From: Elusimicrobiota bacterium
GTDB taxonomy: Bacteria > Elusimicrobiota > JBDRON01
Length of the DNA stretch: 64,000 nt
NCBI GenBank assembly: GCA_043810025.1
Contig: JBDRON010000056.1
Location: 19,377-83,376, forward strand
Direction: 5' to 3'
The notes beneath the pieces are model-generated. The model was not told the origin of the DNA and made no database searches. It worked only from the letters and a program-made list of their open reading frames with translations. A program made the position numbers and the translations under genes. Below, in pieces: positions 6,866 through 63,408 of this stretch (position 1 is the stretch's first letter; every line of letters begins with the position of its first letter).

Positions 6866-6955
6866 AGGTCATGAGTCATGGGTTATGAGTTATGAGTTTA
6901 TAAAGAATAGAGTCTTTTAATCACAAGACACATGACTCATAACTTGTGACTTATT
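6866..6955. repeat. Family B long palindrome (tandem-heptamer arms + conserved AAAGAATAGAGTCTTTTAA centre), copy B1
   Basis: Arms GTCATGAGTCATGGGTTATGAGTTATGAG / CACAAGACACATGACTCATAACTTGTGAC; lies between nuoD and nuoH. Confidence 0.7.
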
Positions 6956-9393: not shown

Positions 9394-9410
9394 ATCAACC
9401 GTATAATATT

Positions 9411-9505
9411 GGTCGTGAGTCATGAGTCTTGGGTTATGAGCTTGAAAGGAATCGATTCTTTTAGACTCAAGACTCATAACGCATGACTCAGGACTTGTAA
9501 CTTGC
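9411..9505. repeat. Family B palindrome, copy B2
   Basis: GGTCGTGAGTCATGAGTCTTGGGTTATGAGCTTGAAAGGAATCGATTCTTTTAGACTCAAGACTCATAACGCATGACTCAGGACTTG; between nuoK and nuoL. Confidence 0.7.
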
Positions 9506-14527: not shown

Positions 14528-14650
14528 AGGAAATTAGAAGTTTGTTGAAGTGTTCCCCCTTTTGAAAGGGGGATGAAGGGGGATTTTAAAATATTGATAA
14601 AATCTCCCCTACCCCTCTTTTTAAAGAGGGAAAAAAACGTCACAGGTGTG
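14528..14650 (+). repeat. Family A triple-hairpin REP-like element, copy A1
   Basis: GAAATTAGAAGTTTGTTGAAGTGTT-CCCCCTTTTGAAAGGGGG-ATGAAGGGGGATTTT...AAATCTCCCCTA-CCCCTCTTTTTAAAGAGGG-AAAAAAACGTCACAG; three consecutive stem-loops; immediately downstream of nuoN. Confidence 0.7.
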
Positions 14651-15580: not shown

Positions 15581-15684
15581 TGAGGACTAACTTAATTGAT
15601 AAATGAAGGCAAAAAAGCTTTTTTGACTAACTTGTGGATACTGTGGATAAGGTTGTGGATAACTATTACATACAAAAGAACACA

Positions 15685-15770
15685 GGTCATGAGTTGTGGG
15701 TCGTGGGTTGTGAGCTTAAAAGAATCGAGTCTTTTAATCTCAAGACTCATGACTCATAACCCATGACTTA
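15685..15770. repeat. Family B palindrome, copy B3
   Basis: GGTCATGAGTTGTGGGTCGTGGGTTGTGAGCTTAAAAGAATCGAGTCTTTTAATCTCAAGACTCATGACTCATAACCCATGACTTA; upstream of bamA. Confidence 0.7.
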
Positions 15771-15895
15771 TTTCGGGAATTTCGCAGGCAATCGCGGTTC
15801 TAGGGATCATAGTTCTGGTTTGACTTTTGCTGTAAAAATGGTAAGATAAATTAAACTAAACTATTATAAATTGGATTACAAGGAGTTTACTTAAG

Positions 15896-18229
15896 ATGAA
15901 AAAGCTACTGGTTTATTTTAACATAATTTGTTTTTTGTTTGGTCTTTTTCCGACCGCTGTCTTCGCCGAGACCGTCGATGTCTACACTGGAAAAAAAATC
16001 CGGGCAATAGAGATTAAGGGAAATAGAAATGTTAAGGAGAGCGCTATCCGGGAAAAAATGAAGTTGAGTAAAGGTGATTTCTATAATCAAGGAAGTGTCG
16101 ATGAAGATATTCAAAAAATTAATGAATTGGGTTTGTTCGACGAGGTTAAGGTTGATCTGGAAGAAGTGAAGAAAGGGGTGAAACTGATTTATTATTTGGT
16201 GGAAAAACCGATTATTAAAAAAATTGAGTTTAAGGGTAATAAAAAATTTCCTAACCGCCGGTTAAAAGAAAAAATTGCCAGTAAAGAAGAGGAGTCTTAT
16301 AACAAAACCAGAGTTGAAGATGATCTTGGCAAGCTGATCATTTTTTACAAAGATGAAGGTTATAGCGAGGTTAAAGTCGAAGCTTTTCCGGCTGTCGATG
16401 AAAAAACAAATCAAGCGGTGATAACCTTTTTTATTCGGGAAGGCAAACAGGTTTTAGTTGATAAAGTCCTTTTGAGCGGAACAAAAGATTTTAGCGCCAA
16501 GAAAGTGCTTAAAGGGATGAAACTGCGCAGGAAAAAGGTTTTTAAAGAAGATACTCTGCGGGCGGATATCAAGGAGATAGAAAGTTTTTATAAAAATCGC
16601 GGGTATTTGCAAGTGACGGTTGTCGAACCACAGATTACTTACAATAAGGAGCGGACAAAAGTCAGTATCGAAATAAAAGTTGTTGAGGGCAGGAAATTCA
16701 GGTTTGGAGCTATTACTTTTGAAGGGAGCAGTTTGTACCCGGAAAAAAAATTATTGACTAACCTTACCTTTAAACCCGGGCAGATTTTTTCCCAGCAGGA
16801 ACTGGACAAAAGTGTGGAAAATGTTCATCAGCTTTATTATAGCAAAGGATATCTGCGCTCGTTGGTGGAAGCTAAACAAGATGTGCAAGAGATTGCCGGT
16901 ATTTTAAATGTGGCCGTCAATATTACTGAGGGCGGGATTGTTTATATCGATCGGATTTATATTGAAGGCAATACCTTCACCAAAGATTATGTGCTCCGCC
17001 GGGAACTGCTGGTTAAGGAAGGGGATCCGTTTGATTTAACTAAAATTAAACGCAGTCAGGAAAAACTTTACAATTTGGGATTTTTAAAAGAGGTGTCGAT
17101 AGACATTCAAGAAACACCGGTTGAGGATAAGGCCGACTTGGCCATTGATATTAAAGAAGACAAGCCGGGAATTTTAACCATGGGCGCGGGCTATTCTTCC
17201 GTGGACCGGTTTTCCGGAACCTTGCAGGTTTCCCATGTCAATATGTTTGGCCTGGGCCAGCGTCTTAACCTGCTCTGGGAGTTCGGCCAGCGCAAACAGA
17301 ATTATGAAATCGGTTTTACTGAGCCCTGGATCTTCAGTAACCCGATTTATGCCGAAAGTCCTTCGGCTTTGTTTCGTTGGTTAAATCGCCATCAAACCAC
17401 CGCCGGTTTCGGTGTTTTTAACACGATTCGCAAAAGGCAGTATGGCACGGAGTCCGATGCTTATAAAGAACAGCGCCGGGGTGGAGATTTGCGCTTGGGC
17501 CGCAGTTTTACTGATTTCGTTTCGGGAAACCTTACATACTCTTATGAAGAAATAAAGCTATTTGATTCTATCGTGACCGATGTTAAACCTTCTCTGGCGG
17601 TTACCTCCAGCATTTCGTCCGGGTTATCCCGGGATAGCCGCGATAACATTTTTGATGCGGCCCGCGGGTCCCGAAATAGTGTTTCAGTGGAACTGGCCGG
17701 CGGTCCGGTTGGCGGGAATGTGCATTTCTACCGGCCGAGCGTTACCTCTTCCTGGTTTTTTCCGACCTTTTGGAAGTTTGTGTTTTCCACCAATTTGCGC
17801 TTGGGTCTGATTCGCTCTTTTCCACCATCATCAGAAATACCGGTCTATGAGCGGTACTATGTGGGTGGGGCGGATACGGTGCGCGGCTATGACTACCGCG
17901 GGCAAATCGGCCCTCAGGAAGGCGGCAATATCATGAGCGTGGTGAATGCTGAATACAAGTTTCCTTTTGTCGAAGAAGGCGGTCGGACAATATTGCAGGG
18001 AGCCTTCTTCTTTGATTTGGGCGGCGCCTGGCGGAACTTTCGGGATATAAGGTTAGCTCTGGGTAACGAAGAACTGAATTGGAAAGCCGGGGTGGGTTTC
18101 GGGATCCGGATTTTTGTGATGGCGGTATTCCCGATCAGGCTGGACTGGGGCTATGGTTTAAATCATCGCCGGGACATTCAAAAAGCCAGCCGTCACCAGT
18201 TCTACTTTACCATCGGCCAGGTGTTTTAA
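15896..18229 (+). CDS. bamA: outer membrane protein assembly factor BamA
   Basis: 777 aa; N-terminal signal peptide, repeated POTRA-like segments (IEFKGNKKF..., ITFEGSSLY..., IYIEGNTFT...); C-terminal beta-barrel ending ...FYFTIGQVF; followed by skp-lpxD. Confidence 0.9.
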   Translation: MKKLLVYFNIICFLFGLFPTAVFAETVDVYTGKKIRAIEIKGNRNVKESAIREKMKLSKGDFYNQGSVDEDIQKINELGLFDEVKVDLEEVKKGVKLIYYLVEKPIIKKIEFKGNKKFPNRRLKEKIASKEEESYNKTRVEDDLGKLIIFYKDEGYSEVKVEAFPAVDEKTNQAVITFFIREGKQVLVDKVLLSGTKDFSAKKVLKGMKLRRKKVFKEDTLRADIKEIESFYKNRGYLQVTVVEPQITYNKERTKVSIEIKVVEGRKFRFGAITFEGSSLYPEKKLLTNLTFKPGQIFSQQELDKSVENVHQLYYSKGYLRSLVEAKQDVQEIAGILNVAVNITEGGIVYIDRIYIEGNTFTKDYVLRRELLVKEGDPFDLTKIKRSQEKLYNLGFLKEVSIDIQETPVEDKADLAIDIKEDKPGILTMGAGYSSVDRFSGTLQVSHVNMFGLGQRLNLLWEFGQRKQNYEIGFTEPWIFSNPIYAESPSALFRWLNRHQTTAGFGVFNTIRKRQYGTESDAYKEQRRGGDLRLGRSFTDFVSGNLTYSYEEIKLFDSIVTDVKPSLAVTSSISSGLSRDSRDNIFDAARGSRNSVSVELAGGPVGGNVHFYRPSVTSSWFFPTFWKFVFSTNLRLGLIRSFPPSSEIPVYERYYVGGADTVRGYDYRGQIGPQEGGNIMSVVNAEYKFPFVEEGGRTILQGAFFFDLGGAWRNFRDIRLALGNEELNWKAGVGFGIRIFVMAVFPIRLDWGYGLNHRRDIQKASRHQFYFTIGQVF

Positions 18230-18232
18230 TAG

Positions 18233-18328
18233 TGCAAAACGCAAAGCGCAAAACGCAAAATGCAAAGTCAAAAGCATCGAGTCTTTAAAAGTCCTTAAGT
18301 TTTGCGCTTTGCGCATTGAGTTTTACGC
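18233..18328. repeat. Family B-type palindrome, copy B4 (arms built from GCAAAAC heptamers)
   Basis: TGCAAAACGCAAAGCGCAAAACGCAAAATGCAAAGTCAAAAGCATCGAGTCTTTAAAAGTCC...TTTTGCGCTTTGCGCATTGAGTTTTACGC; same centre as B1-3 but different arm heptamers. Confidence 0.65.
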
Positions 18329-18358
18329 TATTATGTTTGTTGGGGGGGAGTCAAAAAT

Positions 18359-19132
18359 ATGAATAGAAAATATTTTACTTTGCTCTTGATTGTTAGTATC
18401 GGGGCGCTGCCGTGTTGGGGATTTCGGCTTACCGATCAGCCGCAGACCGCAGCGACTCCATCCAGTGTTCAGCCGGCCAAACTTCTTCAAGCGGCTCCGG
18501 CCGAAAAAAAAGCGCCGAAGATTGCTTTTGTGGATATGGAGAAAATTTTTAACGAATTTCCGGAAACCAAAACAGCTAAAGAGCAATTGGATGCGATGGT
18601 TAATAAAGGCAAGGAAGAAATTGTTTTAAAAGAACAAAAAGTAAAAAATTTAAAAGCTGAAATTGTTTCTCTTTCTGTCCAACCTTCGTCGCCGGCTGTC
18701 AAGCAGCAGTCCTATACGGTCCAACCATCATCGCCTTCGATCAATCAGCAGTCCTATACTGTTCCGCCATCCTCATCGTCATGGAGTCAACCATCGGATC
18801 TGGAACAACCGGTTTCTTCCCGCTCTTCTGCGGAGATTCTGTCGGATAAACAGGCGGAATTAAAACAAGCTCAAGACGCTTTGGACAAATTTATTGCCGA
18901 CACCGAACAACGGCTTACGGAATGGGAAAGTAAAGCCATGCGCGGGATCTTGGGCAAGTTTTACCAATCCCTCCGCAAAATTGCCGAGGAGGAAAATTTT
19001 AGCATTATTGTTGATAAAAACAGTGTTCTTTATGGTGAGCAGGGATTGGATATCACCGATCGTCTCCAAAAAGACTTGGAAAAAGCAGCCGAAGAATTAA
19101 TTGAAATTGAAGAAAATCCGGAGGATGAGTAA
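18359..19132 (+). CDS. skp: periplasmic chaperone Skp (OmpH family) with internal P/S/Q-rich tandem repeat insert
   Basis: Signal peptide; coiled-coil Skp-like ends; position between bamA and lpxD; tandem 14-aa repeats QPSSPAVKQQSYTV/QPSSPSINQQSYTV. Confidence 0.72.
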   Translation: MNRKYFTLLLIVSIGALPCWGFRLTDQPQTAATPSSVQPAKLLQAAPAEKKAPKIAFVDMEKIFNEFPETKTAKEQLDAMVNKGKEEIVLKEQKVKNLKAEIVSLSVQPSSPAVKQQSYTVQPSSPSINQQSYTVPPSSSSWSQPSDLEQPVSSRSSAEILSDKQAELKQAQDALDKFIADTEQRLTEWESKAMRGILGKFYQSLRKIAEEENFSIIVDKNSVLYGEQGLDITDRLQKDLEKAAEELIEIEENPEDE

Positions 19133-23159: not shown

Positions 23160-23180
23160 AAAAATAATTCGGATAGTAAT

Positions 23181-23265
23181 GTTAGTTGTAGGGAACGGTC
23201 GTGACCGTTCCGCTTTTGTCATGTAACAGAAATATAAGTTGTAGGGAAAGCATATCTGCGTTCCC
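23181..23265. repeat. Family D element, copy D2 (two GTTGTAGGGA units)
   Basis: GTTAGTTGTAGGGAACGGTCGTGACCGTTCCGC...GTTGTAGGGAAAGCATATCTGCGTTCCC; downstream of lpxI. Confidence 0.6.
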
Positions 23266-23287
23266 AGGTGAACCATAAAAATAGTCC

Positions 23288-23316
23288 TTGACAATACAAG
23301 TTATAACTTGTATACT
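23288..23316 (+). promoter_or_regulatory. sigma70-like promoter TTGACA-17-TATACT with a palindromic operator (CAAGTTATAACTTG) in the spacer, upstream of higB-like/higA-like
   Basis: Consensus -35 at 23288-93, 17-nt spacer that is itself a perfect 14-bp palindrome, -10 TATACT at 23311-16. Confidence 0.5.
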
Positions 23317-23340
23317 CTTATTAGAAATAAAGAGTAAAAG

Positions 23341-23688
23341 ATGCTGAAAAATATCTATTATTTTGTAGATGAACGGGGTGATAACCCGGTTAGAGAATTT
23401 ATAGATTCTTTGCCGATTAAAGAACGGGCAAAGATATTTGCTTACATTGAAGAATTAAGAAATCAGGGTCACAATTTGCGTAGGCCGATAGCGGATTATT
23501 TAGGTAACGATATTTATGAACTAAGACCTAAAAGCAATAGAATCTTTTATTTCTTCTTTTTAAAAGATAACGCGGTTTTGGTTCATGCCATAAAAAAGAA
23601 GACGGACAAAATTCCCAATGCCGATTTAAACTTAAGTATAAAAAGAAAAGGGTTGGTTGAGGAGTATGAACGAGTAGAAAAAATATAA
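23341..23688 (+). CDS. type II toxin, HigB-like / phage-related Gp49 (RelE/ParE superfamily)
   Basis: 115 aa, MLKNIYYFVDERGDNPVREFIDSLPIKERAKI...; followed 8 nt later by an XRE HTH gene (toxin-first HigBA arrangement). Confidence 0.68.
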   Translation: MLKNIYYFVDERGDNPVREFIDSLPIKERAKIFAYIEELRNQGHNLRRPIADYLGNDIYELRPKSNRIFYFFFLKDNAVLVHAIKKKTDKIPNADLNLSIKRKGLVEEYERVEKI

Positions 23689-23704
23689 TAGTGAGGTGAG
23701 CGGG

Positions 23705-24031
23705 ATGAAAAAAATTAAATTAGAAAAAATCGACGACCATTTAAACGCGGAATTAAAGAATGAAGAATTCAGAAGGAATTTTGAATTAGAAAGAGCTAAA
23801 GTATCGTTGGCTCAAAAAATAGCGGAGCTGAGACAGGATAAAAAACTGAAACAAATTGATCTCGCCAAGAAACTGCATGTTTCGCAGCAATTCATTTCCC
23901 TGATTGAAACTGCGCAAGAAAAGAATTTGACTCTGGAAACTTTAGTAAAAATTGCCAAGTCCTTGGGAAGAAGTGTCAAAATTTCTTTCCCCAAAGCCTC
24001 TGCCCAAGGTGCTCATCTCAAGATAGCATAA
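23705..24031 (+). CDS. HigA-like antitoxin, XRE-family HTH DNA-binding protein
   Basis: HTH region LRQDKKLKQIDLAKKLHVSQQFISLIE; GAGGTG RBS before ATG 23705. Confidence 0.68.
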   Translation: MKKIKLEKIDDHLNAELKNEEFRRNFELERAKVSLAQKIAELRQDKKLKQIDLAKKLHVSQQFISLIETAQEKNLTLETLVKIAKSLGRSVKISFPKASAQGAHLKIA

Positions 24032-24119
24032 TTTGTTTGAATACAAAGTAACAGATAAAAAAATACAGCCGACTAATTTTAGTTTAATTCCCTAGTTTAA
24101 GAATATAAGTAAGTTTAAT

Positions 24120-24593
24120 ATGAGTGAAGAAGAAAAATACGAGTACGATAGTAATATTTTGTCAATAAAGTATACAAAAATTACTGATACGATACCTGTT
24201 TCTGGTGCGAATACATCTACCAGTATATTTTGGGATCAAACAGAAATGCCTGATGCCGGAGTTCTTAAATTTTTAGAACCTTGTGGTCGGAATTGGAGAT
24301 TCGGAAAACTGGAAAATGAAATGAAGTATGTAGCGAGGGTGCACCACAAATTAAAATCAAATTCTAAAGGTAATTTCTATACTTTAATATGGAGTTGGAA
24401 AGATATTCATCAAGTAAAGGAGTGGCTTGAATTAGACGGTGTTGCAATAGACTTAAAAACAAAATTTGTTATTAGGCCAGGATGTTTAATCGCAATTGGG
24501 AATTTTAAGAAAAACAATAATCATCAAATTTATGTAAAAGAAAAAGAGGAATTTGTTCTTGAAATTACAGAAAGTACTACTAATATAGAATGA
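24120..24593 (+). CDS. hypothetical protein (ORF A of AT-rich island), translationally coupled to the next gene
   Basis: 157-aa ORF in a markedly AT-rich segment; 4-bp overlap (ATGA) with the downstream ORF; no recognisable motif. Confidence 0.5.
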   Translation: MSEEEKYEYDSNILSIKYTKITDTIPVSGANTSTSIFWDQTEMPDAGVLKFLEPCGRNWRFGKLENEMKYVARVHHKLKSNSKGNFYTLIWSWKDIHQVKEWLELDGVAIDLKTKFVIRPGCLIAIGNFKKNNNHQIYVKEKEEFVLEITESTTNIE

Positions 24594-25666
24594 AAACTTC
24601 TCCGATAAAACAATTACCAAACAATGACTATTTAATAAATCCTGGTGCTTCATTTGAAATGCATCTTTATAATACCGACATCAATACCGTAACCGAACTA
24701 GTTAATATTATGAAAAAAGGTGAGGAAGAAGGATCAGGAACTGGCGTTGTTAACTGTAAATTGTTGGAATTACTAGTAAAAAATAATGTTAGATGCCGTG
24801 AAATTGATTCTTATGTAAATGAATTTCGGCCACAATATATTCAAAATCTAAAAACATATTCTGGATTAAATGTTGACTGGCAGAGTATTAATGAAATTGA
24901 TATAAGTAGTATTCCAGAAGAAATCAGAAAAAAAGCAGTTGATGAGTTGCGCATAAAACCAGACACTAATATAGAGGTTTTGTTTAAACTTTATCCTTGT
25001 GATGATTCTGTGCCGATAGAAGTATTTAGGAAGTATCCCTTTAAAGTTATAGTAAAATATCTTAATGTTTGGGATCGGGGCAAAGAATTGAAAGTTATTC
25101 CTCTGGAACACCGAGATAGAAAAATTTACGAGAAAATGGTTGAATTGAATCTGTCTATGCAAGGGGAAGCAATTCCGCTTAAAGATATATTAGTGACTTT
25201 GAAATTATCTGAATTAAAGGAAATCGGTTTAAAGGTAAATACAGAGCCATCAAATAAGAAAGAAAAAGTTATTGAAAATTTACTGAGCAAAGAAGGTGTT
25301 GAAAAACAAATTCAAGGTAGTATTAATCTTAAAGACTATTTTAAACTTATTTCTATCGAACGAGAGTTTGGCTCCGATATATTCAGTAAATTAAATTCAT
25401 CCATTAAATATAATGAACTTAATGCAGACTTAATTGGGAGAACTTTTTTATTCTCTTATTACAATGATTCTAGGGATAATTCCTGGTCGAATCCAATATC
25501 TTCTGAACTAATCACAGGATATGAAATTTCAATGGTTTCCGATGCAAGATGTTGCCCTTACTGTAAAGATATGAAAGGAAAAAAGTTTGACAAAGTTAAT
25601 TGTCCTAAAATACCATTGCATTTGGCTTGTCGATGTGCGAAAGTCCCGCTAACAAAATATGGCTAA
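24590..25666 (+). CDS. hypothetical protein (ORF B) with SAP-like helix-extended-helix motif and C-terminal Mu-F/SPP1-gp7-like zinc-ribbon motif (CxYC...PLHxxCRC)
   Basis: 358 aa; LKDILVTLKLSELKEIGLKVNT...KKEKVIENLLSK resembles a SAP DNA-binding motif; C-terminus CCPYCKDMKGKKFDKVNCPKIPLHLACRCAKVPL resembles the conserved end of phage head-morphogenesis (Mu F) domains. Confidence 0.5.
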   Translation: MKTSPIKQLPNNDYLINPGASFEMHLYNTDINTVTELVNIMKKGEEEGSGTGVVNCKLLELLVKNNVRCREIDSYVNEFRPQYIQNLKTYSGLNVDWQSINEIDISSIPEEIRKKAVDELRIKPDTNIEVLFKLYPCDDSVPIEVFRKYPFKVIVKYLNVWDRGKELKVIPLEHRDRKIYEKMVELNLSMQGEAIPLKDILVTLKLSELKEIGLKVNTEPSNKKEKVIENLLSKEGVEKQIQGSINLKDYFKLISIEREFGSDIFSKLNSSIKYNELNADLIGRTFLFSYYNDSRDNSWSNPISSELITGYEISMVSDARCCPYCKDMKGKKFDKVNCPKIPLHLACRCAKVPLTKYG

Positions 25667-25702
25667 AGTATTTGAATAAAACACTGTATTAGGGGATTAA
25701 AT

Positions 25703-26155
25703 ATGTCGGGATCATTTTTATACATTGGAATTCATTTTATTTTTAGTACAAAAAATCGTGTGAACATAATTACTAGCGAAATAAAAGATAGGTTGTATTC
25801 CTATATTGGCGGAATAATAAAATCAATTAAAGGTATACCAATTGCTATAAATGGAATGCCTGATCATATCCATGTTTTTTGTATTGTATCACGGGAAATG
25901 ACCATTGCTGATTTTATGCGTATTGTTAAATCAAATTCATCAAAATGGTTGAATGAAACTTTTCCTGTTAAGCCAAAATTCCAATGGCAAGACGGATACG
26001 GTTCGTTTTCAGTCACTAAATCATCAGAAAATAAAATCATTGAATATGTAAAAAATCAAGAAGAACATCATAAACAAAAATCATTTCAGGATGAATTTAT
26101 TGAATATTTAAGATTGATGAAAATTGACTATGATGAAAGATATATATGGCAATAA
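25703..26155 (+). mobile_element. tnpA: IS200/IS605-family Y1 HUH transposase (TnpA) / REP-associated tyrosine transposase (RAYT)-like, solitary
   Basis: 150 aa; HUH motif MPDHIHVFCIV; C-terminal catalytic Tyr in EYVKNQEEHH (Y-x-x-NQ motif of IS200 TnpA/RAYT); no tnpB partner. Confidence 0.75.
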
Positions 26156-26400
26156 TACTCCGCCGCCCCGTTGGGGCTTATATTTTCATGGGTGATTATA
26201 GCGGGGATTACATCCCCGCCTATAATCCGCAATCCCTTCGGGATAATAAATTGAAAAAGATTGTAGTATGCTTTTATTTGTCCTGAAAGGACAACGGAAT
26301 ATAGGCGGGGGGCTTGCCCCCCGAAAATGAAATATTCCATGAACGATAAGCCCTGAAAGGGCGGAGGAAAAGCGCCCAAATTATTTATAAATTTTCAGTG
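26156..26400 (+). other. structured GC-rich hairpin cluster downstream of tnpA (possible IS end / REP-like hairpins / small RNA)
   Basis: Hairpins TATAGCGGGGATTACATCCCCGCCTATA (26195-26225), GTCCTGAAAGGAC, GGCGGGGGGCTTGCCCCCCG (about 26300-26322), GCCCTGAAAGGGC; the outer complement CTCCGCCGCCCC...GGGCGGAG frames the region. Confidence 0.45.
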
Positions 26401-26592
26401 TAATAAAAAGAGGTAAGCTATGGATTTCAAAATTTTATCTACTCACTCGTGGGGCGGAGATTTGACAGAAAAAAATTATTGGCCTAGAATCGGGGGAAAG
26501 TTTCCCTATTACGAAATTATCTGGTCGAAGGTTATAGCGCTCTTAACAAAGAGATCAGACAATTTACTTTTGGTTTAAAAAGGGGGGGTGTT

Positions 26593-27498
26593 ATGAAAAA
26601 TTTTTTTGAGAAAAATAAAATATTCTTGGGTATAATTATAGCCGGTTTGATGATTGCCGCAGCTATTTATTTTGGTTTAAATAAGCCGGCTGATAAAGAA
26701 AAATATTTATCATTATCGTCCTCGCCGTCTCCTGCCCAAAGTTTGGCGCCGGCTGAGGCTCTTGTCACTAAAGTTATCGATGGTGATACGATAATTGTTG
26801 AAGGCGGTTATAATGTCCGGCTTTTGGGTATTGATGCTGATGAGGCGGGTTATCCCTGTTACGAAGCAGCCAAAAAACGCTTAGAAGAATTGATTTTAAA
26901 TAAAACGGTGAGATTGGAAAAAGACCAAACCGATGTTGACCAATATAAAAGATATTTGAGGTATATTTTTCTTGACGACAAAAATATATGTTTAGAGTTG
27001 GTAAAAGAAGGCTTGGCAATTGCCAGATTTTATGAGCCGGATAGAAAATACAAAAACGAGATTGTTTCCGGCGAAAAAGAAGCGATTGAGAAAAAAGTTG
27101 GTTGCAAATGGTCCGCTTCCACCAATGTTTCGGCGGATAAATTATCTTACGAAAAAAACGAATTCTCCTATGAGAAATTAACCACGGGGAAGACCGGTTT
27201 AAAAGTAGTTGGCGCTTACCAATCAGGGAATTATTACGGAAGAGAAGTCATTGTGGAAGGAAAAGTAGTTGGCGCTTATCGCTCAAAAACAAATATAGTT
27301 TTCTTAAATTTTGATAAAACCTATCCCAATCAATATTTTGTCGGAGTTATTTTTAGTTCAGACCAGTATAAGTTTGTTGAGGCGCCGGAAAAATATTATG
27401 CGGGAAAAACCGTTAGAATCAAAGGAAAAATTAAGGAGTATCGCGGCAAACCGGAAATTATTATAAAAGACCCTTCCCAGATTGAGATAGGAAAATAA
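26593..27498 (+). CDS. membrane-anchored thermonuclease (SNase-like) with C-terminal OB-fold domain
   Basis: N-terminal TM; SNase core VIDGDTIIVEGGYNVRLLGIDADE...RYLRYIFLDDKN...; C-terminal OB-fold-like repeat (KVVGAY...KGKIKEYRGKPEIIIKD). Confidence 0.72.
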   Translation: MKNFFEKNKIFLGIIIAGLMIAAAIYFGLNKPADKEKYLSLSSSPSPAQSLAPAEALVTKVIDGDTIIVEGGYNVRLLGIDADEAGYPCYEAAKKRLEELILNKTVRLEKDQTDVDQYKRYLRYIFLDDKNICLELVKEGLAIARFYEPDRKYKNEIVSGEKEAIEKKVGCKWSASTNVSADKLSYEKNEFSYEKLTTGKTGLKVVGAYQSGNYYGREVIVEGKVVGAYRSKTNIVFLNFDKTYPNQYFVGVIFSSDQYKFVEAPEKYYAGKTVRIKGKIKEYRGKPEIIIKDPSQIEIGK

Positions 27499-27735
27499 AC
27501 TCATATATGCAAAGTCAAAATAAAAAAGGGAAAAATCTTTTTACAGTATCAAAAATTAGAGGGTATTGATTGGTTATGAAACTCACTAAAAAAGATTCAG
27601 AGACAATTTGTGATGTTTTTTTGTTTTCTGGTAAATATGATCTTATGGATGGAAATTGATAATGAGTAAAGAGACAATAGAAAAGCTCACAAATACAATT
27701 GCTCAAAATACCGAACCTAAAATTCAGCCGCGTAT

Positions 27736-27764
27736 TGTATATAACTGCGCATAATTAAAGGGAC
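27736..27764. repeat. left arm of a 29-bp perfect inverted repeat (TATATAACTGCGCATAATTAAAGGGACAT)
   Basis: Exact reverse complement found at 27958-27986; the pair flanks a 193-bp segment containing Family A copy A3. Confidence 0.8.
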
Positions 27765-27817
27765 ATCAGCAAAAGTGTCATAGCAACGAAAGCTGGTATC
27801 CAGAAAGTGTGATATAC

Positions 27818-27957
27818 AGAAATTTGAATGTTTGTTTTGCGTATATTCCCCCTTAAAAAAGGGGGACACAGGGGGATTTTGAAAATTAGAAATATTGTCT
27901 AAATCTCCCCTACCCCTCTTTTTAAAAGAGGGGAAAAAATACCACAGAACGAAACTC
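27818..27957 (+). repeat. Family A triple-hairpin element, copy A3 (inside the 29-bp IR pair)
   Basis: GAAATTTGAATGTTTGTTTTGCGTATATT-CCCCCTTAAAAAAGGGGG-ACACAGGGGGATTTTGAAAATTAGAAATATTGTCTAAATCTCCCCTA-CCCCTCTTTTTAAAAGAGGGG-AAAAAATACCACAG. Confidence 0.7.
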
Positions 27958-27986
27958 ATGTCCCTTTAATTATGCGCAGTTATATA
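27958..27986. repeat. right arm of the 29-bp perfect inverted repeat; contains the start codon of the downstream wHTH gene
   Basis: ATGTCCCTTTAATTATGCGCAGTTATATA; ATG 27972 (MRSYIVEK...) lies inside it. Confidence 0.8.
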
Positions 27987-28196
27987 GTCGAAAAAATAGA
28001 GGATAAAAACATAATTGTAGTTGATGTAAATGAATCTATTTATTTAAGAGAACATAAAGAAATAACTAGAAATGAATGTATGGAATTATTGAATTTAACG
28101 AGAGATATTGCAATTAGAGAACTTTTATCGTTGAAGAGAAAGGGAATTATTAAACAAATTGGTAAAGGGAAGAACATTTATTATGTACTTGTCTAA
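27972..28196 (+). CDS. small winged-helix DNA-binding protein (possibly a gene fragment)
   Basis: 74 aa; ...ITRNECMELLNLTRDIAIRELLSLKRKGIIKQIGKGKNIYYVL resembles C-terminal wHTH domains of Fic/AAA-type regulators; the start is embedded in the inverted repeat. Confidence 0.4.
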   Translation: MRSYIVEKIEDKNIIVVDVNESIYLREHKEITRNECMELLNLTRDIAIRELLSLKRKGIIKQIGKGKNIYYVLV

Positions 28197-28256
28197 CGAA
28201 AATGCGACGAATCCGATTCGTCTCAGGCGGATTGATTTTTGGTTTTGCGGAGTGAT

Positions 28257-29237
28257 ATGGCTAAAATAAAAGTTGCGGTTGTTGGGGTGGGGCATTTGGG
28301 GCAGCATCATGCGCGGGTTTATTCCCAGTTGCCGGAAGCGGAATTGGCGGCGGTGGTGGATAACGATTTTTCTGCGGCGCAGAAGTTTGGGAAAAAATTT
28401 GGCTGTGCGGCTTTGGCGGATTACCGGCAAATTTTGGGCAAAGTTGAGGCGGTTTCGCTGGTCGTGCCTACCCCGCTGCATTTTTCCATCGGCAAAGATT
28501 TGCTTTCTGCCGGTCTGCATGTTTTAATCGAAAAACCACTGGCTTCCTCTTTGGAAGAAGCGGAAGAATTAATTGCCTTGGCTCAGCAAAAAAACTCCAT
28601 ACTGCAAGTCGGGCATATCGAACGGTTTAACAGCGGCCTGGTAGAAACGCAAAAGTATATCAGCCGGCCGCGGTTTATTGAAGCTAACCGGCTGGGGCCT
28701 TACGATCCCCGCACCGGTCATATCGGGGTGATCCTGGATTTGATGATTCACGATCTGGACATAGTTTTACAGTTGGTTAATTCCAAGATCGAAACAATCG
28801 AGGCGGATGCGGCGGCGGTTTTTTCCGGCCACGAGGATATCGCCAAAGTGCGTTTAAGGTTTGCCAACGGTTGTATCGCCGATTTATCGGCAAGCCGGAT
28901 TTCTCTGGAAAAATTTCGTAAAATAAGAATTTTTCAGCCGGAGAGTTATATTTCGCTGGATTATATCCGTCAGGAGCTGAAAATTTATCGCAAGAAAGAG
29001 TCGGTGGAGCAGGTTAAATCCCTGATGGACATTGAGGTTATCCGTCCAAAGTTAAAAAGCCAGGAACCTTTGCAGGAAGAGCTGAAACATTTTCTGGAAT
29101 GCGTCCGAACCGGTAAAACCCCGCTGGTCACCGGCGAACACGGCCGCGGCGCCCTGGAGCTGGCTTTGGAAATTTTAAAGAAAACAAAAGTACAAGTAGT
29201 AAATAGTCCACAGTCCACGGTCCACAGTCCACACTAA
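28257..29237 (+). CDS. Gfo/Idh/MocA-family NAD(P)-dependent oxidoreductase (possible UDP-GlcNAc 3-dehydrogenase GnnA-like, lipid A associated)
   Basis: Rossmann N-terminus MAKIKVAVVGVGHLGQHHARVY; immediately upstream of lpxB-msbA; the last 11 codons (NSPQSTVHSPH) are encoded by a GTCCACA heptamer-repeat arm. Confidence 0.75.
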   Translation: MAKIKVAVVGVGHLGQHHARVYSQLPEAELAAVVDNDFSAAQKFGKKFGCAALADYRQILGKVEAVSLVVPTPLHFSIGKDLLSAGLHVLIEKPLASSLEEAEELIALAQQKNSILQVGHIERFNSGLVETQKYISRPRFIEANRLGPYDPRTGHIGVILDLMIHDLDIVLQLVNSKIETIEADAAAVFSGHEDIAKVRLRFANGCIADLSASRISLEKFRKIRIFQPESYISLDYIRQELKIYRKKESVEQVKSLMDIEVIRPKLKSQEPLQEELKHFLECVRTGKTPLVTGEHGRGALELALEILKKTKVQVVNSPQSTVHSPH

Positions 29238-29290
29238 TAACAGCTCCTTTTATTTTTATTCTGTGGTCAGTGGACTGTCGACTGTGGACG
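29217..29290. repeat. heptamer-arm palindrome (GTCCACA x4 ... TGTGGAC x2) at the oxidoreductase 3' end
   Basis: GTCCACAGTCCACGGTCCACAGTCCACAC-TAATAACAGCTCCTTTTATTTTTATTC-TGTGGTCAGTGGACTGTCGACTGTGGAC; same architecture as Family B with a different centre. Confidence 0.65.
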
Positions 29291-34620: not shown

Positions 34621-34872
34621 TCAGGTACATGACCGCTCACAATTAACTGGAAACACAGAAATTTTAATGTTTGTTTTTTTTGTGTTCCCCCTTAATGAAC
34701 TTCTTATTTCCCAGTAGTTTTTTCTGAGGTGTTTCAAGCCTAAGCCTTCCGGCTTTTTTTTAGAGGTAAAAAAATCAATCGCCTGGCAAACTGACTCTTT
34801 GGCTTTCTTTTTACGTAAGTGGTCCAAATTTCGCAGTGATTTATCAAAAGACGGTTTAAATTCAAATCTCAT
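34621..34872 (-). CDS. RelE/ParE-family toxin-like protein, 3' end replaced by a partial Family A repeat (likely inactivated)
   Basis: MRFEFKPSFDKSLRNL...GLGLKHLRKNYWEIR matches RelE/ParE toxin N-terminus and core; the expected C-terminal catalytic region is missing, and the last about 15 codons are encoded by the Family A head sequence (34657-34695). Confidence 0.5.
   Translation of the reverse strand: MRFEFKPSFDKSLRNLDHLRKKKAKESVCQAIDFFTSKKKPEGLGLKHLRKNYWEIRSSLRGNTKKTNIKISVFPVNCERSCT
34657..34695 (+). repeat. partial Family A element (5' head only: AGAAATTTTAATGTTTGTTTTTTTTGTGTTCCCCCTTA), copy A9
   Basis: Matches the head of A3 (GAAATTTGAATGTTTGTTTTGCGTATATTCCCCCTT); embedded in the 3' end of the RelE-like ORF. 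Confidence 0.55.
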
Positions 34873-35236: not shown

Positions 35237-35400
35237 GAATTTAAGAAACACTTCAGCCAGGGGAAGTCCGTGGGAATCGGACACTGCCCCGCAACGGTGA
35301 TTCCTTCCGCCATCAGGCGGATTGGATAAGTCCGGTCTACTGTCTGAAGCATAAATCCTAAAAAGTGTTTTTAGGATTGCCTGCGCGGGCGGGATGGGTT
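35237..35400 (+). promoter_or_regulatory. cobalamin (AdoCbl) riboswitch
   Basis: B12-box-like core ...AGGGGAAGTCCGTGGGAATCGGACACTGCCCCGCAACGGTGA... (the conserved ...GCCACTG... region appears as CACTGCC); 5' UTR of the cobO-btuFCD-cobCUTS operon. Confidence 0.75.
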
Positions 35401-36023: not shown

Positions 36024-36683
36024 ATGAGCAAAATAGTTTATTTAGTAAAAAGAAGTTTGTTGTTAAGTTTTGCGTTTTGCGCTTTGCACTTTACGCTTGT
36101 TTTCGCGGCTTCACCGCAAAGGATTGTCTCTTTGTCGCCTTCCGTAACGGAGATACTTTTTTTGCTTGGTTTGGGGGATAAAGTGGTCGGGGTCACCACT
36201 TCCTGCGATTATCCGCCGCTGGCCAAAGAAAAATTTAAAGTTGGTGATTTTTCCAATCCGAACCTGGAAAAAATTGTTGCGCTTCAACCGGATCTGGTTT
36301 TTGTTACCGACGGCATACAGGAGCCGCTGGCGCGGAAATTGAGGCAGTTTGGTTTAAGGGTGGAGGTGGTTGCCCCCCAGAATATTGAAGGGATTCTCCG
36401 CTCATTTGTTTCAATTGGTGAATCTACCGGAACAAGCGGGCCGGCGATGAGGTTGGTAAAAGAAATTCGCCGCAGGTTGAATAAGGTTGAGGTGAAAGTT
36501 GCCGCTGTTCCCCGGGAGAAAAGGCCGAAAATTTTTCTGGAGATTTGGCCTAAACCCTTGATGACGGTCGGCAAAGACTGTTTTGTTGACCTTGACCCGG
36601 ATTTATTGCTGCGCACCGGACCGCGTTTTGTCCAGGGGGTAGAAGATTTGTACCGGATTTTCTACCCGGATGATAAACCATGA
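36024..36683 (+). CDS. btuF: periplasmic cobalamin-binding protein (ABC substrate-binding, BtuF-like)
   Basis: Signal peptide, then PQRIVSLSPSVTEILFLLGLGDKVVGVT (BtuF/FecB family). Confidence 0.78.
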   Translation: MSKIVYLVKRSLLLSFAFCALHFTLVFAASPQRIVSLSPSVTEILFLLGLGDKVVGVTTSCDYPPLAKEKFKVGDFSNPNLEKIVALQPDLVFVTDGIQEPLARKLRQFGLRVEVVAPQNIEGILRSFVSIGESTGTSGPAMRLVKEIRRRLNKVEVKVAAVPREKRPKIFLEIWPKPLMTVGKDCFVDLDPDLLLRTGPRFVQGVEDLYRIFYPDDKP

Positions 36684-37459: not shown

Positions 37460-37560
37460 TGATGTTATGTGTGTTCCCCTTTTAGAAAGGGGGATAAGGG
37501 GGATTTAGAAAATAATTACTAAATCTCCCCTAACCCCTCTTTATAAAAGAGGGGAATAAG
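37460..37560 (+). repeat. Family A triple-hairpin element, copy A4
   Basis: TGATGTTATGTGTGTT-CCCCTTTTAGAAAGGGGG-ATAAGGGGGATTTAGAAAATAATTACTAAATCTCCCCTAA-CCCCTCTTTATAAAAGAGGGG-AATAAG; between btuC and btuD. Confidence 0.7.
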
Positions 37561-37578
37561 AAATGAGGTGCCTAACTA

Positions 37579-39457: not shown

Positions 39458-40513
39458 ATGGAAAAAGTGGAAGAAATTGTAGTGAAAATTGCCGGGCTTG
39501 ATTCGGATCTGCTAAGGAGGACACAAGAAAGGTTGGATAATCTTACCAAGCCGCCGGGCAGTTTGGGAAGGCTGGAAGAGTTGGCCAGGATGATCGTCGG
39601 AATGACCGGAAAAGCTAACCCCTCTTTGGACAACAAGGTTATTTTTACCCTTGCTGCTGATCATGGAGCGGCGGAGGACGGGGTCAGCGCTTATCCCCGG
39701 GAAGTGACGGCTCAGATGGTTTATAATTTTTTAAATGGCGGGGCGGCGATCAATGTTTTGGCTAAGCATGCGGGGGCGAGGGTGGTGGTCGTGGATCTGG
39801 GAGTGGCCGTCGATTTAAAACCTCATCCGGAGTTAATGATTAAAAAAATAAATTATGGGACAAAAAACATGCGCCAGGGGCCGGCGATGAGCCGTGGGGA
39901 AGCGATAAAATCCATCGAAGCCGGGAAGGAAATTTTTCAGGTGGCGGCGGAGAAAGGGATTGATATCGCCGGGACCGGAGATATGGGCATTGGGAATACG
40001 ACGGCCAGCGCGGCTTTAACGGCTGTTTTTACCGGCCGGGCTGTGGAGGATGTTACCGGCCGCGGTACCGGCCTTGAGGATCAGGCTTTAAAAAACAAAG
40101 TTGCCTTTATTGCTGAGGCGATAGGCTTAAACAAGCCGGATAAAAACGATCCGTTGGATGTGCTGGCTAAACTGGGCGGGTTTGAGATCGGGGGGTTGGC
40201 CGGAATAATTTTGGCGGCTGCTTCCCGAAGGGTGCCGGTGGTGATTGATGGTTTTATTTCCGGGACGGCGGCTTTGCTGGCTTATCAGCTAGAGCCAAAA
40301 GTTAAGGATTATCTGATCGCTTCGCATTGTTCGGTAGAAAAGGGGCATAAAATAATTCTTGATTTTATTGGTTTAAAACCGTTTTTGGATTTGAATTTAA
40401 GGTTAGGCGAAGGAACGGGAGCGGCCTTGGGCATCAGTCTGGCCGAAGCTAGTATAAAAATATTAACCCAAATGGCCACCTTTGCCAAAGCCGGAGTTTC
40501 CACAAAAAAGTAG
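39458..40513 (+). CDS. cobT: nicotinate-nucleotide--dimethylbenzimidazole phosphoribosyltransferase
   Basis: CobT family (KPPGSLGRLEELA..., GIGNTTASAAL, ...ALGISLAEASIKIL); AAGGAG RBS before ATG 39458 (track start 39374 is an over-extension). Confidence 0.88.
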   Translation: MEKVEEIVVKIAGLDSDLLRRTQERLDNLTKPPGSLGRLEELARMIVGMTGKANPSLDNKVIFTLAADHGAAEDGVSAYPREVTAQMVYNFLNGGAAINVLAKHAGARVVVVDLGVAVDLKPHPELMIKKINYGTKNMRQGPAMSRGEAIKSIEAGKEIFQVAAEKGIDIAGTGDMGIGNTTASAALTAVFTGRAVEDVTGRGTGLEDQALKNKVAFIAEAIGLNKPDKNDPLDVLAKLGGFEIGGLAGIILAAASRRVPVVIDGFISGTAALLAYQLEPKVKDYLIASHCSVEKGHKIILDFIGLKPFLDLNLRLGEGTGAALGISLAEASIKILTQMATFAKAGVSTKK

Positions 40514-40516
40514 TAG

Positions 40517-40590
40517 TTGTGGGTCATGGGTCTTGAGCTCAAAAGACTCGATTCCTTTAAAATCACAACCCATGACACACAACTCAGAAC
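40517..40590. repeat. Family B palindrome, copy B5
   Basis: TTGTGGGTCATGGGTCTTGAGCTCAAAAGACTCGATTCCTTTAAAATCACAACCCATGACACACAACTCAGAAC; between cobT and cobS. Confidence 0.7.
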
Positions 40591-40616
40591 CATTACTTTA
40601 GGGAGCTTGTTTTATC

Positions 40617-41383: not shown

Positions 41384-41432
41384 GTGATGTGATTTGTGTT
41401 CCCTCTTTATAAAAGAGGGAATGAAAAAAATC
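41384..41432 (+). repeat. internally deleted Family A element (head + hairpin 3 only), copy A8
   Basis: GTGATGTGATTTGTGTT-CCCTCTTTATAAAAGAGGG-AATGAAAAAAATCGC. Confidence 0.5.
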
Positions 41433-43347: not shown

Positions 43348-43462
43348 TTTTGGGGGATCAGTTGTATTAAAATGTCCCCCTTTGATAAAGGGGGATTAAG
43401 GGGGTTGGGTTTTATATTTTTAAACTCCCCTAACCCCTCTTTAATAAAGAGGGGAATTAAAG
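43340..43462 (+). repeat. Family A triple-hairpin element, copy A5
   Basis: GAATTGATTTTGGGGGATCAGTTGTATTAAAATGT-CCCCCTTTGATAAAGGGGG-ATTAAGGGGGTTGGGTTTTATATTTTTAAACTCCCCTAA-CCCCTCTTTAATAAAGAGGGG-AATTAAAG. Confidence 0.7.
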
Positions 43463-43479
43463 CTCCGATAAATAAAAAT

Positions 43480-45995: not shown

Positions 45996-47132
45996 ATGCG
46001 CGAGCCAAAAATACTTTTTCTTTATATTTCGGTTAGTTCCGGCCATCAACAGGCGGCTGAATCAATTCAAAAAGCGATAAAAGAAATTGTCCCGGAAGCA
46101 AAGACTTTAGGGTTGGATTCCTTTAATTATGCCTATCCTTTTGTGGGCAAATTTATTGCCGGCACTTATCTGCAAATTGTTAAACGGACACCATTTCTTT
46201 GGGATTATCTTTACGATAACCCCGATGTGGTTACCGCCACGCAGGAAATTCGCGAGGTGTTAAACCGCCTTAATTCCAGGAAATTCAAAAAATTGCTTGC
46301 CTCGTTTCATCCTTCGGCCGTTGTTTGTACCCAGGCTGTTCCCTGTAGTGTGGTGGCTGCCGCGAAACGACACCGGAAGATTAACGTGCCGTTGATCGCC
46401 GTGATTACGGATTTTGCCGCCCATGCTTACTGGGTTTATAAAGAAGTCGATGCTTATGTCGTGGCTAATGAGAGTACCCGGCGGGAACTGATGAAAAAAG
46501 GCATCCCCGAAGAAAAAATTTATCTCTTTGGCATCCCGATCAATCCGGTGTTTAATCAGCAGGTCGGAAAAGAAGACGCCCGGCTCAGTTTGGGGTTTAA
46601 ACCCAATTTGCCGGTCTTATTGGTAATGGGCGGCAGTCAAGGGCTGGGGCCGATCGAGAGTATACTCTCCGCCCTGGATTGGATATCCATTCCTTTTCAG
46701 GTGGCGGTAATTACCGGACTGAATGAAAAATTGCGGCGTTCTTTAAAAAAAGATTTTGCCAAAAGTATTCATCGGTTTCACATTTTTGGTTATATCGATG
46801 GGATTGACAAGTTTATGGAAGCGGCGGATATTTTGATTACCAAACCCGGTGGATTAACGTCTTCAGAGGCCTTGGCAAAAGGTTTGCCGATGATTATTGT
46901 CAATCCGATACCCGGTCAGGAGGAAAGAAACAGCAGTTATTTAATTAAACATGGTGTTGCTGAACGCGCGGATAATCTTGAAGAATTGGCTCATTATGTA
47001 AGTGATTTTTTTTCTCATCCGGTAAAACTGTCCCGGATGCGCCATCAAGCCCTCTCCATGGCCCAGCCTGATGCGGCTTATAATACGGCTTTATTGGTTT
47101 TGAAACAAATCGGCTGGCCGACAATAGTGTAA
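45996..47132 (+). CDS. glycosyltransferase family 28, MGDG-synthase/UgtP-like (diacylglycerol glycosyltransferase)
   Basis: N-terminal KILFLYISVSSGHQQAAESI (MGDG_synth domain signature) and C-terminal GT-B fold (LVMGGSQG..., ITKPGGLTSSEALAKGLPMIIVNPIPGQEERN). Confidence 0.75.
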   Translation: MREPKILFLYISVSSGHQQAAESIQKAIKEIVPEAKTLGLDSFNYAYPFVGKFIAGTYLQIVKRTPFLWDYLYDNPDVVTATQEIREVLNRLNSRKFKKLLASFHPSAVVCTQAVPCSVVAAAKRHRKINVPLIAVITDFAAHAYWVYKEVDAYVVANESTRRELMKKGIPEEKIYLFGIPINPVFNQQVGKEDARLSLGFKPNLPVLLVMGGSQGLGPIESILSALDWISIPFQVAVITGLNEKLRRSLKKDFAKSIHRFHIFGYIDGIDKFMEAADILITKPGGLTSSEALAKGLPMIIVNPIPGQEERNSSYLIKHGVAERADNLEELAHYVSDFFSHPVKLSRMRHQALSMAQPDAAYNTALLVLKQIGWPTIV

Positions 47133-47190
47133 AACGCAAAGCGCAAAACTTAAAGTCAAAAGATAAAAGAATCAAGTTAGTCGCTTTCGG
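47129..47190. repeat. half Family B element (GCAAAAC-type arm + AAAAGAATCAAG centre, right arm missing), copy B8
   Basis: GTAAAACGCAAAGCGCAAAACTTAAAGTCAAAAGATAAAAGAATCAAGTTAGTCGC, abutting Family A copy A6. Confidence 0.5.
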
Positions 47191-47204
47191 CGCTGACTTT
47201 TAAA

Positions 47205-47340
47205 ATTTCCTTCTTCTTTTGTTCCCCTCTTTTATAAAGAGGGGTTAGGGGAGATTTGGTAATTATTATTGTCTAAATCCCCCTTATCCCCCTTTAAAAA
47301 AGGGGGAAATTAGATTTTTGCTACACATTGAATTTCCTTA
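47205..47340 (-). repeat. Family A triple-hairpin element, copy A6 (reverse orientation)
   Basis: Reverse complement reads GGAAATTCAATGTGTAGCAAAAATCTAATTT-CCCCCTTTTTTAAAGGGGG-ATAAGGGGGATTTAGACAATAATAATTACCAAATCTCCCCTAA-CCCCTCTTTATAAAAGAGGGG-AACAAAAG. Confidence 0.7.
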
Positions 47341-60408: not shown

Positions 60409-60535
60409 GAATTCCCTTCCCCTTAAGGCTGGGTTTCCCCCTTTTTAAAGGGGGATCAAGGGGGATTTTACGACGATAAAAATCCTCCCTAACCCTCCTT
60501 TACAAAGGAGGGAATAACTAAAAAAACCGCGTTTT
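60408..60535 (+). repeat. Family A triple-hairpin element, copy A7 (compensatory stem-3 variant)
   Basis: ...TTT-CCCCCTTTTTAAAGGGGG-ATCAAGGGGGATTTTACGACGATAAAAATCCTCCCTAA-CCCTCCTTTACAAAGGAGGG-AATAACT; stem 3 reads CCCTCCTTT/AAAGGAGGG here versus CCCCTCTTT/AAAGAGGGG elsewhere. Confidence 0.7.
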
Positions 60536-63310: not shown

Positions 63311-63408
63311 AGTCGTAGTCTTGAGCCATGGGTCTTGAGTCTTGAGTCTTGAGTTTAAAAGAATCGATTCCTTTAAACTCAGAACCCATGACACATAACG
63401 CATGACCC
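63311..63408. repeat. Family B palindrome, copy B6
   Basis: GTCGTAGTCTTGAGCCATGGGTCTTGAGTCTTGAGTCTTGAGTTTAAAAGAATCGATTCCTTTAAACTCAGAACCCATGACACATAACGCATGACC; between the HK stop and the RR start within a minus-strand operon. Confidence 0.7.

Follow-up and report, generated by a model that had tools for sequence, protein, structure and literature searches.

The 245-bp segment at positions 27740–27984 of the window (the whole 64-kb stretch of DNA that was analysed) is very probably an IS630/Tc1-mariner MITE, which was inserted at a TA dinucleotide and thereby split an already shortened AlbA_2/winged-helix (wHTH) gene. The data show a perfect inverted repeat, identity of its ends to those of an IS630-family insertion sequence (IS), a duplication of the target TA, an empty site in a relative and the lack of a cognate transposase in the window. 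The parts of the locus are given below, with L004 being a metagenomic contig that carries the matching IS, and L015 a syntenic contig of a related organism, reached via the adjacent nuclease gene (84% identical).

27589–27661, plus strand: native upstream region of the host gene (27589–27684 aligns with L015:3440–3535 at 83%)
27662–27739, plus strand: 5' host-gene fragment (MSKETIEKLTNTIAQNTEPKIQPRIV), with the native start; 93% nucleotide identity to L015:3694–3767
27738–27739, no strand: left copy of the duplicated target TA, positions 2–3 of host codon GTA (Val26); a single TA in L015
27740–27766, plus strand: left TIR of 27 nt, TA not counted; identical to both L004 IS ends over its first 24 nt (26 when the TA is included)
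27767–27810, no strand: left part of the interior; unique, with no likeness to the IS interior or to the rest of the window
27811–27940, plus strand: copy of the palindromic intergenic repeat Family A, with three nested or adjacent G/C-rich hairpins
27941–27957, no strand: right part of the interior; unique sequence
27958–27984, minus strand: right TIR, containing the ATG at 27972 that gene callers take as the start of a 74-aa ORF
27985–27986, no strand: right copy of the duplicated TA, placed by deletion and empty-site comparison
27987–28196, plus strand: 3' host-gene fragment (VEKIEDKN...wHTH...YYVLV-stop), which matches L015 when joined to the 5' part

The repeat consists of the 29-mer TATATAACTGCGCATAATTAAAGGGACAT, present on the plus strand at 27738–27766 and as its exact reverse complement at 27958–27986 (29/29), with an imperfect extension of the arms to 32 nt (31/32). 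A perfect 29-bp inverted repeat had been claimed by the initial annotation, and this is what we found: two exact copies, no mismatch, and a chance expectation of 0 for such an inverted pair (100 shuffles). The left arm had been placed at 27736–27764, which is 2 nt off, and with the correct position the inner segment measures 191 bp instead of 193 bp. The 29-mer occurs exactly twice in the 64-kb window, i.e. as its two arms, and no third copy was detected there at up to 3 mismatches, nor at 7/25 mismatches. As reported, the right arm holds the ATG at 27972 together with the codons MRSYI of the 74-aa ORF (27972–28196), and the same five codons are read on the opposite strand by an 80-aa ORF (27717–27959, minus strand), which spans the whole unit, ends with ...MRSYIQYAAEF and is made largely of repeat sequence. 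Two further claims, that a Family A copy lies inside the segment (about 27811–27940) and that other Family A copies have no flanks of this kind, also held, the second one within the window. The unit boundaries read TA-TATAAC on the left and GTTATA-TA on the right.

A search of the JGI metagenomes with a 20-mer from the arm retrieved contig L004, on which two inverted matches lie 1.15 kb apart and enclose two overlapping ORFs on the same strand. The first ORF (183 aa) displays HTH_33/HTH_32/HTH_29 domains and the second (188 aa) a DDE_3 domain (1.3e-28); jointly they cover positions 2–137 and 136–298 of NCBIfam NF033545, 'IS630 family transposase'. Each end of the element is identical to each end of the L004 IS over 26/26 nt including the TA (28/29 over the reported 29-mer), and the interiors of the two do not match, subterminal bases included. 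The L004 IS is 1178 bp long and its own ends are perfect (28/28 without the TA), so that the 29/29 identity of the arms, initially taken as a sign of either very recent origin or ongoing gene conversion or inversion, needs no conversion or inversion. The same 1178-bp IS is found in ten more contigs, with at least four distinct left flanks and at least five distinct right flanks, and a TA abuts it at every flank in L004–L014 (the L004 site being C-TA-G). IS630-family elements target TA and duplicate it (PMC2170065), bacterial MITEs typically have TIRs and a terminal TA, and it is through a TIR match that RUP was assigned to IS630-Spn1 (PMC2229807).

Both arms of the element read GGGACAT where the L004 IS has GGGAAAT, and since this single difference is shared by the two arms it points to a variant not yet seen as the true parent IS. 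The L004-type contigs are metagenomic and more AT-rich than the window, and the cognate transposase was found only there and not in this organism. In the 64-kb window no cognate transposase was detected by tblastn (E > 0.29), and among the 54 ORFs of 150 aa or more, the 50 that were compared with Pfam gave no DDE transposase. The two ORFs of L004 overlap by 49 nt (L004:632–680, minus strand; the same in L005–L014), the second transposase ORF being in the -1 frame with an A9G run within the overlap. The DDE ORF has hundreds of relatives in several phyla, mostly of 188 aa and named IS630 family transposase by NCBI, and because they share this 188-aa second ORF the split-ORF layout appears to be a conserved trait of this IS630 subgroup. 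The layout suggests programmed frameshifting of the transposase, conserved in the subgroup. The transposases of IS630 and ISY100 are single ORFs.

Single arms were also seen elsewhere. One solo end (L003:823–851, 27/29 nt) lies beside a Fic-like reading frame on a 34.5-kb metagenomic contig and carries the element-specific C, another match of 22 nt (L001:5794–5818) is located in a marine Gammaproteobacteria MAG, and a third of 20 nt (L002) sits inside GC-rich coding-like DNA. No partner arm was found for any of the three at up to 7 mismatches, and they were set aside as evidence; they may be solo relics of related elements or chance matches.

Deletion of 247 bp, corresponding to the 245-bp element and one TA, fuses the ORF starting at 27662 in frame to the sixth codon of the 74-aa ORF and restores an ORF of 95 aa (...PRIV/VEKIEDK..., the slash marking the junction); a 249-bp deletion does not restore the reading frame. 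The restored ORF has a match to Pfam SLFN_AlbA_2 that spans the junction (residues 3–47; 21 bits, E = 4e-4, under the gathering score), and neither half alone gives this match. With the restored 95-aa ORF as query, phmmer returned 65 matches among 1.8 billion representatives, many of them ungapped over query residues 2–43 or 2–44 and thus across the 26/27 junction (for example ..PKISVEKIDDK.. and ..PKILVEKIEKE..), and four of them full-length. A word-index protein search with the same query gave the protein itself as the sole match.

L015 shares with the window the order lpxI ... gfo-lpxB-ABC and carries a gene encoding a 454-aa AlbA_2/HATPase_c_4/wHTH protein. Residues 60–103 of this protein are 84% identical to residues 1–44 of the restored ORF, with PRIVVEK in both, and residues 404–454 are 86% identical to restored residues 45–95. 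At the insertion spot L015 reads ...CGTATTGTAGTGGAAAA..., with a single TA (..CGTATTG TA GTGG..); its DNA is CAGCCGCGTATTGTAGTGGAAAA, as against CAGCCGCGTATTGTA[27740–27986, 247 bp]GTCGAAAA in the window, and the excised window sequence aligns to it at 119/132 nt with no gap across the junction. The L015 locus is paralogous or rearranged, with about 90% nucleotide identity, rather than the same locus in a sister strain, and as an empty site it establishes, through this alignment, that 245 bp were inserted into codon GTA (Val26) and that the target TA was duplicated. A precise-excision allele of the locus would read ..ATTGTAGTCG... In agreement with this, the MITE-like insertion with terminal inverted repeats, one of two readings initially offered, is borne out by the IS630-family ends, the TA duplication and the empty site in the relative. 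We had also looked for a same-locus empty site in L015, and the slot between the nuclease and Gfo/Idh/MocA genes turned out to hold an unrelated 99-aa gene; the empty site was found instead on the upstream side of the nuclease gene, in the full-length AlbA_2 gene.

The same data bear on the idea that the repeat is a local inverted duplication, with a 29-bp piece of the 5' gene part reverse-copied by replication slippage, or a mis-assembly of the MAG. What speaks for it is the bare repeat and nothing beyond; in eleven unrelated contigs an independent IS that encodes a transposase is bordered by these 26 nt, and the L015 gene lacks the 29 bp, which therefore did not belong to the ancestral gene sequence. 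We consider such an origin barely credible.

Compared with L015, the host gene in the window is without 59 codons near its start and 300 codons mid-gene, both deletions being in frame and the first one sitting between two similar KE(S/T)IEK-coding stretches. As judged from this comparison, the insertion target is an already shortened, 95-aa mini-version of the full-length gene. The gene has kept its own start, stop and leader (27662–28196 compared with L015:3513–4877), and two deletions would both preserve the frame by chance in 1 case out of 9. Before the insertion the 95-aa mini-protein, which joins part of AlbA_2 to a winged helix, may have been functional, and there are short natural homologues of 146–194 aa (P0002, P0021, P0044). 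The stretch L015:3440–3535 comprises the non-coding leader and the first codons of the full-length gene. A 27-aa ORF at 27577–27660 was tried as a decayed N-terminal AlbA_2 half and rejected as spurious: its addition raised the Pfam score from 21 to only 23.5 bits without extending profile coverage, and L015 shows that this stretch is non-coding leader.

In its present state the 5' fragment reads into the left TIR (..YNCA-stop) and is terminated by the TAA that this TIR contains (27752–27754), leaving a 30-aa stub. The 3' fragment, preceded by five TIR-derived codons, is annotated as the 74-aa hypothetical protein ABII74_05470 (NCBI, Elusimicrobiota MAG). The '74-aa wHTH gene' of the initial annotation is thus not intact but the 3' piece of a gene split by the element, with an ATG that comes from the transposon end. 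No Shine-Dalgarno-like sequence precedes the ATG at 27972, unlike several other genes of the window, and the fragment is for this reason probably expressed poorly or not at all.

A different possibility, raised at the outset, is that an invertase recombines the two arms and, by turning the 191-bp interior around, switches the downstream wHTH ORF. A perfect inverted repeat around a short segment directly upstream of an ORF is indeed what such a switch would look like, but the arms are the ends of an IS630-family transposon, with a TA duplication and an empty site, and what follows downstream is a gene fragment that takes its ATG from the arm. A flip would alter the interior only, since each coding fragment has its end or its start in an arm and is read outward. 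Neither Phage_integrase nor Resolvase was detected in 50 of the 54 window ORFs of at least 150 aa (Pfam, E <= 1e-5, partly 1e-3 or looser); the set includes the neighbours of the 314-aa Fic gene and extends to all ORFs of this size except those of 1385, 777 and 654 aa, which are the longest, and a short one. A consensus scan of 27767–27957 found no sigma-70-like site on either strand, a consensus that does not cover the promoter type of this phylum. We therefore regard an inverton-like switch as very improbable. The accompanying statement that the window has no site-specific recombinase stands for these 50 of 54 ORFs, though it had overlooked an IS200/IS605-type Y1 transposase gene (25703–26155).

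This gene, on the plus strand, encodes a Y1 (HUH) transposase of the IS200/IS605 family (Pfam Y1_Tnp 2e-26; 69 bits with NCBIfam IS200) and is the only mobile-element gene found in the window, 1.6 kb upstream of the element. HUH/Y1 transposases are not known to use terminal inverted repeats or to make TA duplications, and the Y1 enzyme was accordingly rejected as the mobilising enzyme on account of its class. The 430 bp downstream of the gene (26156–26590) contain several G/C-rich hairpins and no Family A copy.

The preferred reading, a MITE inserted into the host gene, has to be weighed against decay in place, in which a full IS630-family IS would have inserted here and its transposase gene would later have been deleted from within or replaced, the Family A repeat being acquired in the course of this, so that the 245-bp unit would never have moved as a MITE. 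The element is known from one copy: no second copy of the 245-bp unit was found in the 64-kb window, and an exact 20-mer scan of GTDB representative genomes, JGI metagenomes and IMG/VR retrieved no short TIR pair. One known copy falls short of the multiple copies included in the usual definition of a MITE and fits decay in place, as does the make-up of the interior, roughly half of which is a repeat that the lineage of this genome has of its own. Against this, no interior base outside the TIRs matches the known IS, even subterminally, and the ends are identical over 29/29 nt in a host gene about 10% diverged from its paralogue. The size and architecture of the element are moreover typical of a MITE. 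Decay in place is on balance rather unlikely, and we infer that the 245-bp unit moved as a MITE. Apart from the read-through stub and the minus-strand 80-aa ORF, no ORF runs through its 245 bp, and no Rfam family matches it. Folded as a whole, it reaches -101 kcal/mol (z = -12).

The Family A copy accounts for about half of the 245-bp element. In Family A, two inverted hairpin units form an imperfect palindrome, which is REPIN-like, found in intergenic spacers and laid out as CCCCC-loop-GGGGG ... GGGGGATTT/AAATCTCCCC ... CCCCTC-loop-GAGGGG. The window holds at least eight copies, in addition to which a half-copy was found in the relative:

14550–14637: Family A copy
27811–27940: Family A copy, inside the element
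34650–34695: Family A copy, truncated
37471–37566: Family A copy
41396–41430: Family A half-copy
43373–43463: Family A copy
47212–47312, minus strand: Family A copy
60432–60521: Family A copy
L015:7262–7315: Family A half-copy in the relative, between gfo and lpxB, where the window has a different hairpin

Because the L015 half-copy occupies a site with a different hairpin in the window, Family A appears to be polymorphic between relatives. Rfam has no match to it. As regards a REP/REPIN system, the Y1 transposase scores 21 bits against the RAYT model, for which the cut-off is 80, and no Family A copy flanks its gene. The copy in the element was either a later insertion into it, or the element formed around host DNA.

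The genome is unusually rich in further long intergenic hairpin families, which are built from 7-nt periodic repeats such as (GTCCACA)n ... (TGTGGAC)n, (GAGTCAT/GGGTCGT)n and (GCAAAAC/GCAAAGC)n, with examples at the following positions:

6871–6952, 9405–9498, 15682–15771, 40509–40592 and 63311–63408: 7-nt repeat hairpins
29207–29290, 18228–18329, 36056–36097 and 47123–47206: 7-nt repeat hairpins

A variable island separates lpxI from the gfo-lpxB-msbA-like genes (window 23170–28240, compared with L015:1565–6276). On the window side it contains a Gp49/HigB-like and HTH_3 pair (23341–24031), two unknown ORFs, the IS200-like gene, the nuclease gene and the AlbA_2 remnant; on the L015 side RadC, a fragment of a type I R-M specificity subunit, the full AlbA_2 gene, the nuclease gene and the unrelated 99-aa gene. 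Elsewhere in the window, an AdoCbl (cobalamin) riboswitch (35238–35379, plus strand; 53 bits with Rfam RF01482, which exceeds the gathering score) precedes a gene cluster for B12 salvage and transport comprising BtuR/CobO, a periplasmic binding protein, FecCD, ABC and CobC-like proteins, with CobU, CobT, CobS and a TonB-dependent receptor as further members. Tandem 42-nt units (18677–18760, 81% identical) are located inside an OmpH-like ORF (18359–19132) and are presumably a coding repeat.

According to the mechanism that we propose, a DDE transposase would bind and cut at the 27-bp perfect TIRs, a full-length IS that shares these ends providing the enzyme in trans. The transposase would excise the element and paste it into a TA, with gap repair duplicating the TA. 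In this case the TA that it entered belongs to codon GTA (Val26) of the 95-aa ORF, a shortened paralogue of the 454-aa gene, and the split yielded the 30-aa stub, stopping at the TAA of the left end, and a 3' piece which gene callers restart from the ATG in the right end as the '74-aa wHTH gene'. In ISY100 the transposase protects a 24-bp TIR, and constructs with 30 bp per end transpose like the whole element (PMC2170065); we infer from the sufficiency of such ends that mobilisation in trans would be feasible here.

A more elaborate reading, which we hold to be unlikely, combines two propositions, namely that IS630-type ends captured host DNA bearing the Family A repeat, and that the ATG in the element end re-initiates translation downstream. 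As to its first part, the element may have been born in this lineage, when two IS630-type ends captured host DNA; if so, the Family A repeat would have gained a second, transposase-driven route of spread. As to the second, all copies of the end (TTATGCGCAGTTATATA) contain an outward-facing ATG, from which downstream translation could start again, in which case in-frame insertions would not merely inactivate a disrupted gene but turn it into a stand-alone C-terminal domain, here a 74-aa winged-helix protein.

In terms of annotation, the 'hypothetical protein' ABII74_05470 becomes the tail of an AlbA_2/winged-helix gene that had undergone two deletions before a transposon split it, and ordinary mobile-DNA biology accounts for the striking perfect inverted repeat, with no recourse to phase variation. 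A non-autonomous element of the IS630 family is documented in an Elusimicrobiota MAG, the kind of element being already well known. The related autonomous IS is described by its ends, its length (1178 bp), its TA target and its split-ORF transposase, which can be used for masking and annotating metagenomes, and the lpxI-lpxB segment is marked as a variable island between two related genomes.

Among known systems, the invertons fimS, hin and the Bacteroides PSA promoters likewise have inverted repeats around a segment of a few hundred bp beside a gene, but they depend on a tyrosine or serine invertase of their own and have a promoter within the segment, and here neither was found. The Correia elements have strong hairpin potential when transcribed and can change the expression of neighbouring genes. 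These MITEs of Neisseria share with the element the TIRs of about 26 bp, the terminal TA and the TA duplication (PMC2229807). They measure 100–155 bp, are highly repeated and mostly intergenic, whereas the element described here has 245 bp, is known from one copy and lies in a gene; they also have documented promoters and IHF sites, features that were not detected in the element. ISY100/IS630 and mini-ISY100, like the IS of L004–L014, have TIRs of about 24–30 bp, a duplicated TA target and a DDE transposase with N-terminal HTH domains, and ends-only constructs are fully mobilisable (PMC2170065). In contrast to ISY100/IS630, the element of the window has no transposase, and that of the matching IS is encoded by two overlapping ORFs (183 and 188 aa). 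RUP, the MITE of S. pneumoniae linked to IS630-Spn1, is 107 bp long with about 100 copies in one genome, as against 245 bp and one known copy here, and unlike RUP the present element carries an unrelated host repeat and has its matching IS, so far, only in contigs of other organisms. RUP is likewise short and non-coding, with TIRs that match an IS630-family IS and insertion at TA; it is thought to move in trans, and it often inactivates the genes or IS elements in which it sits (PMC2229807).
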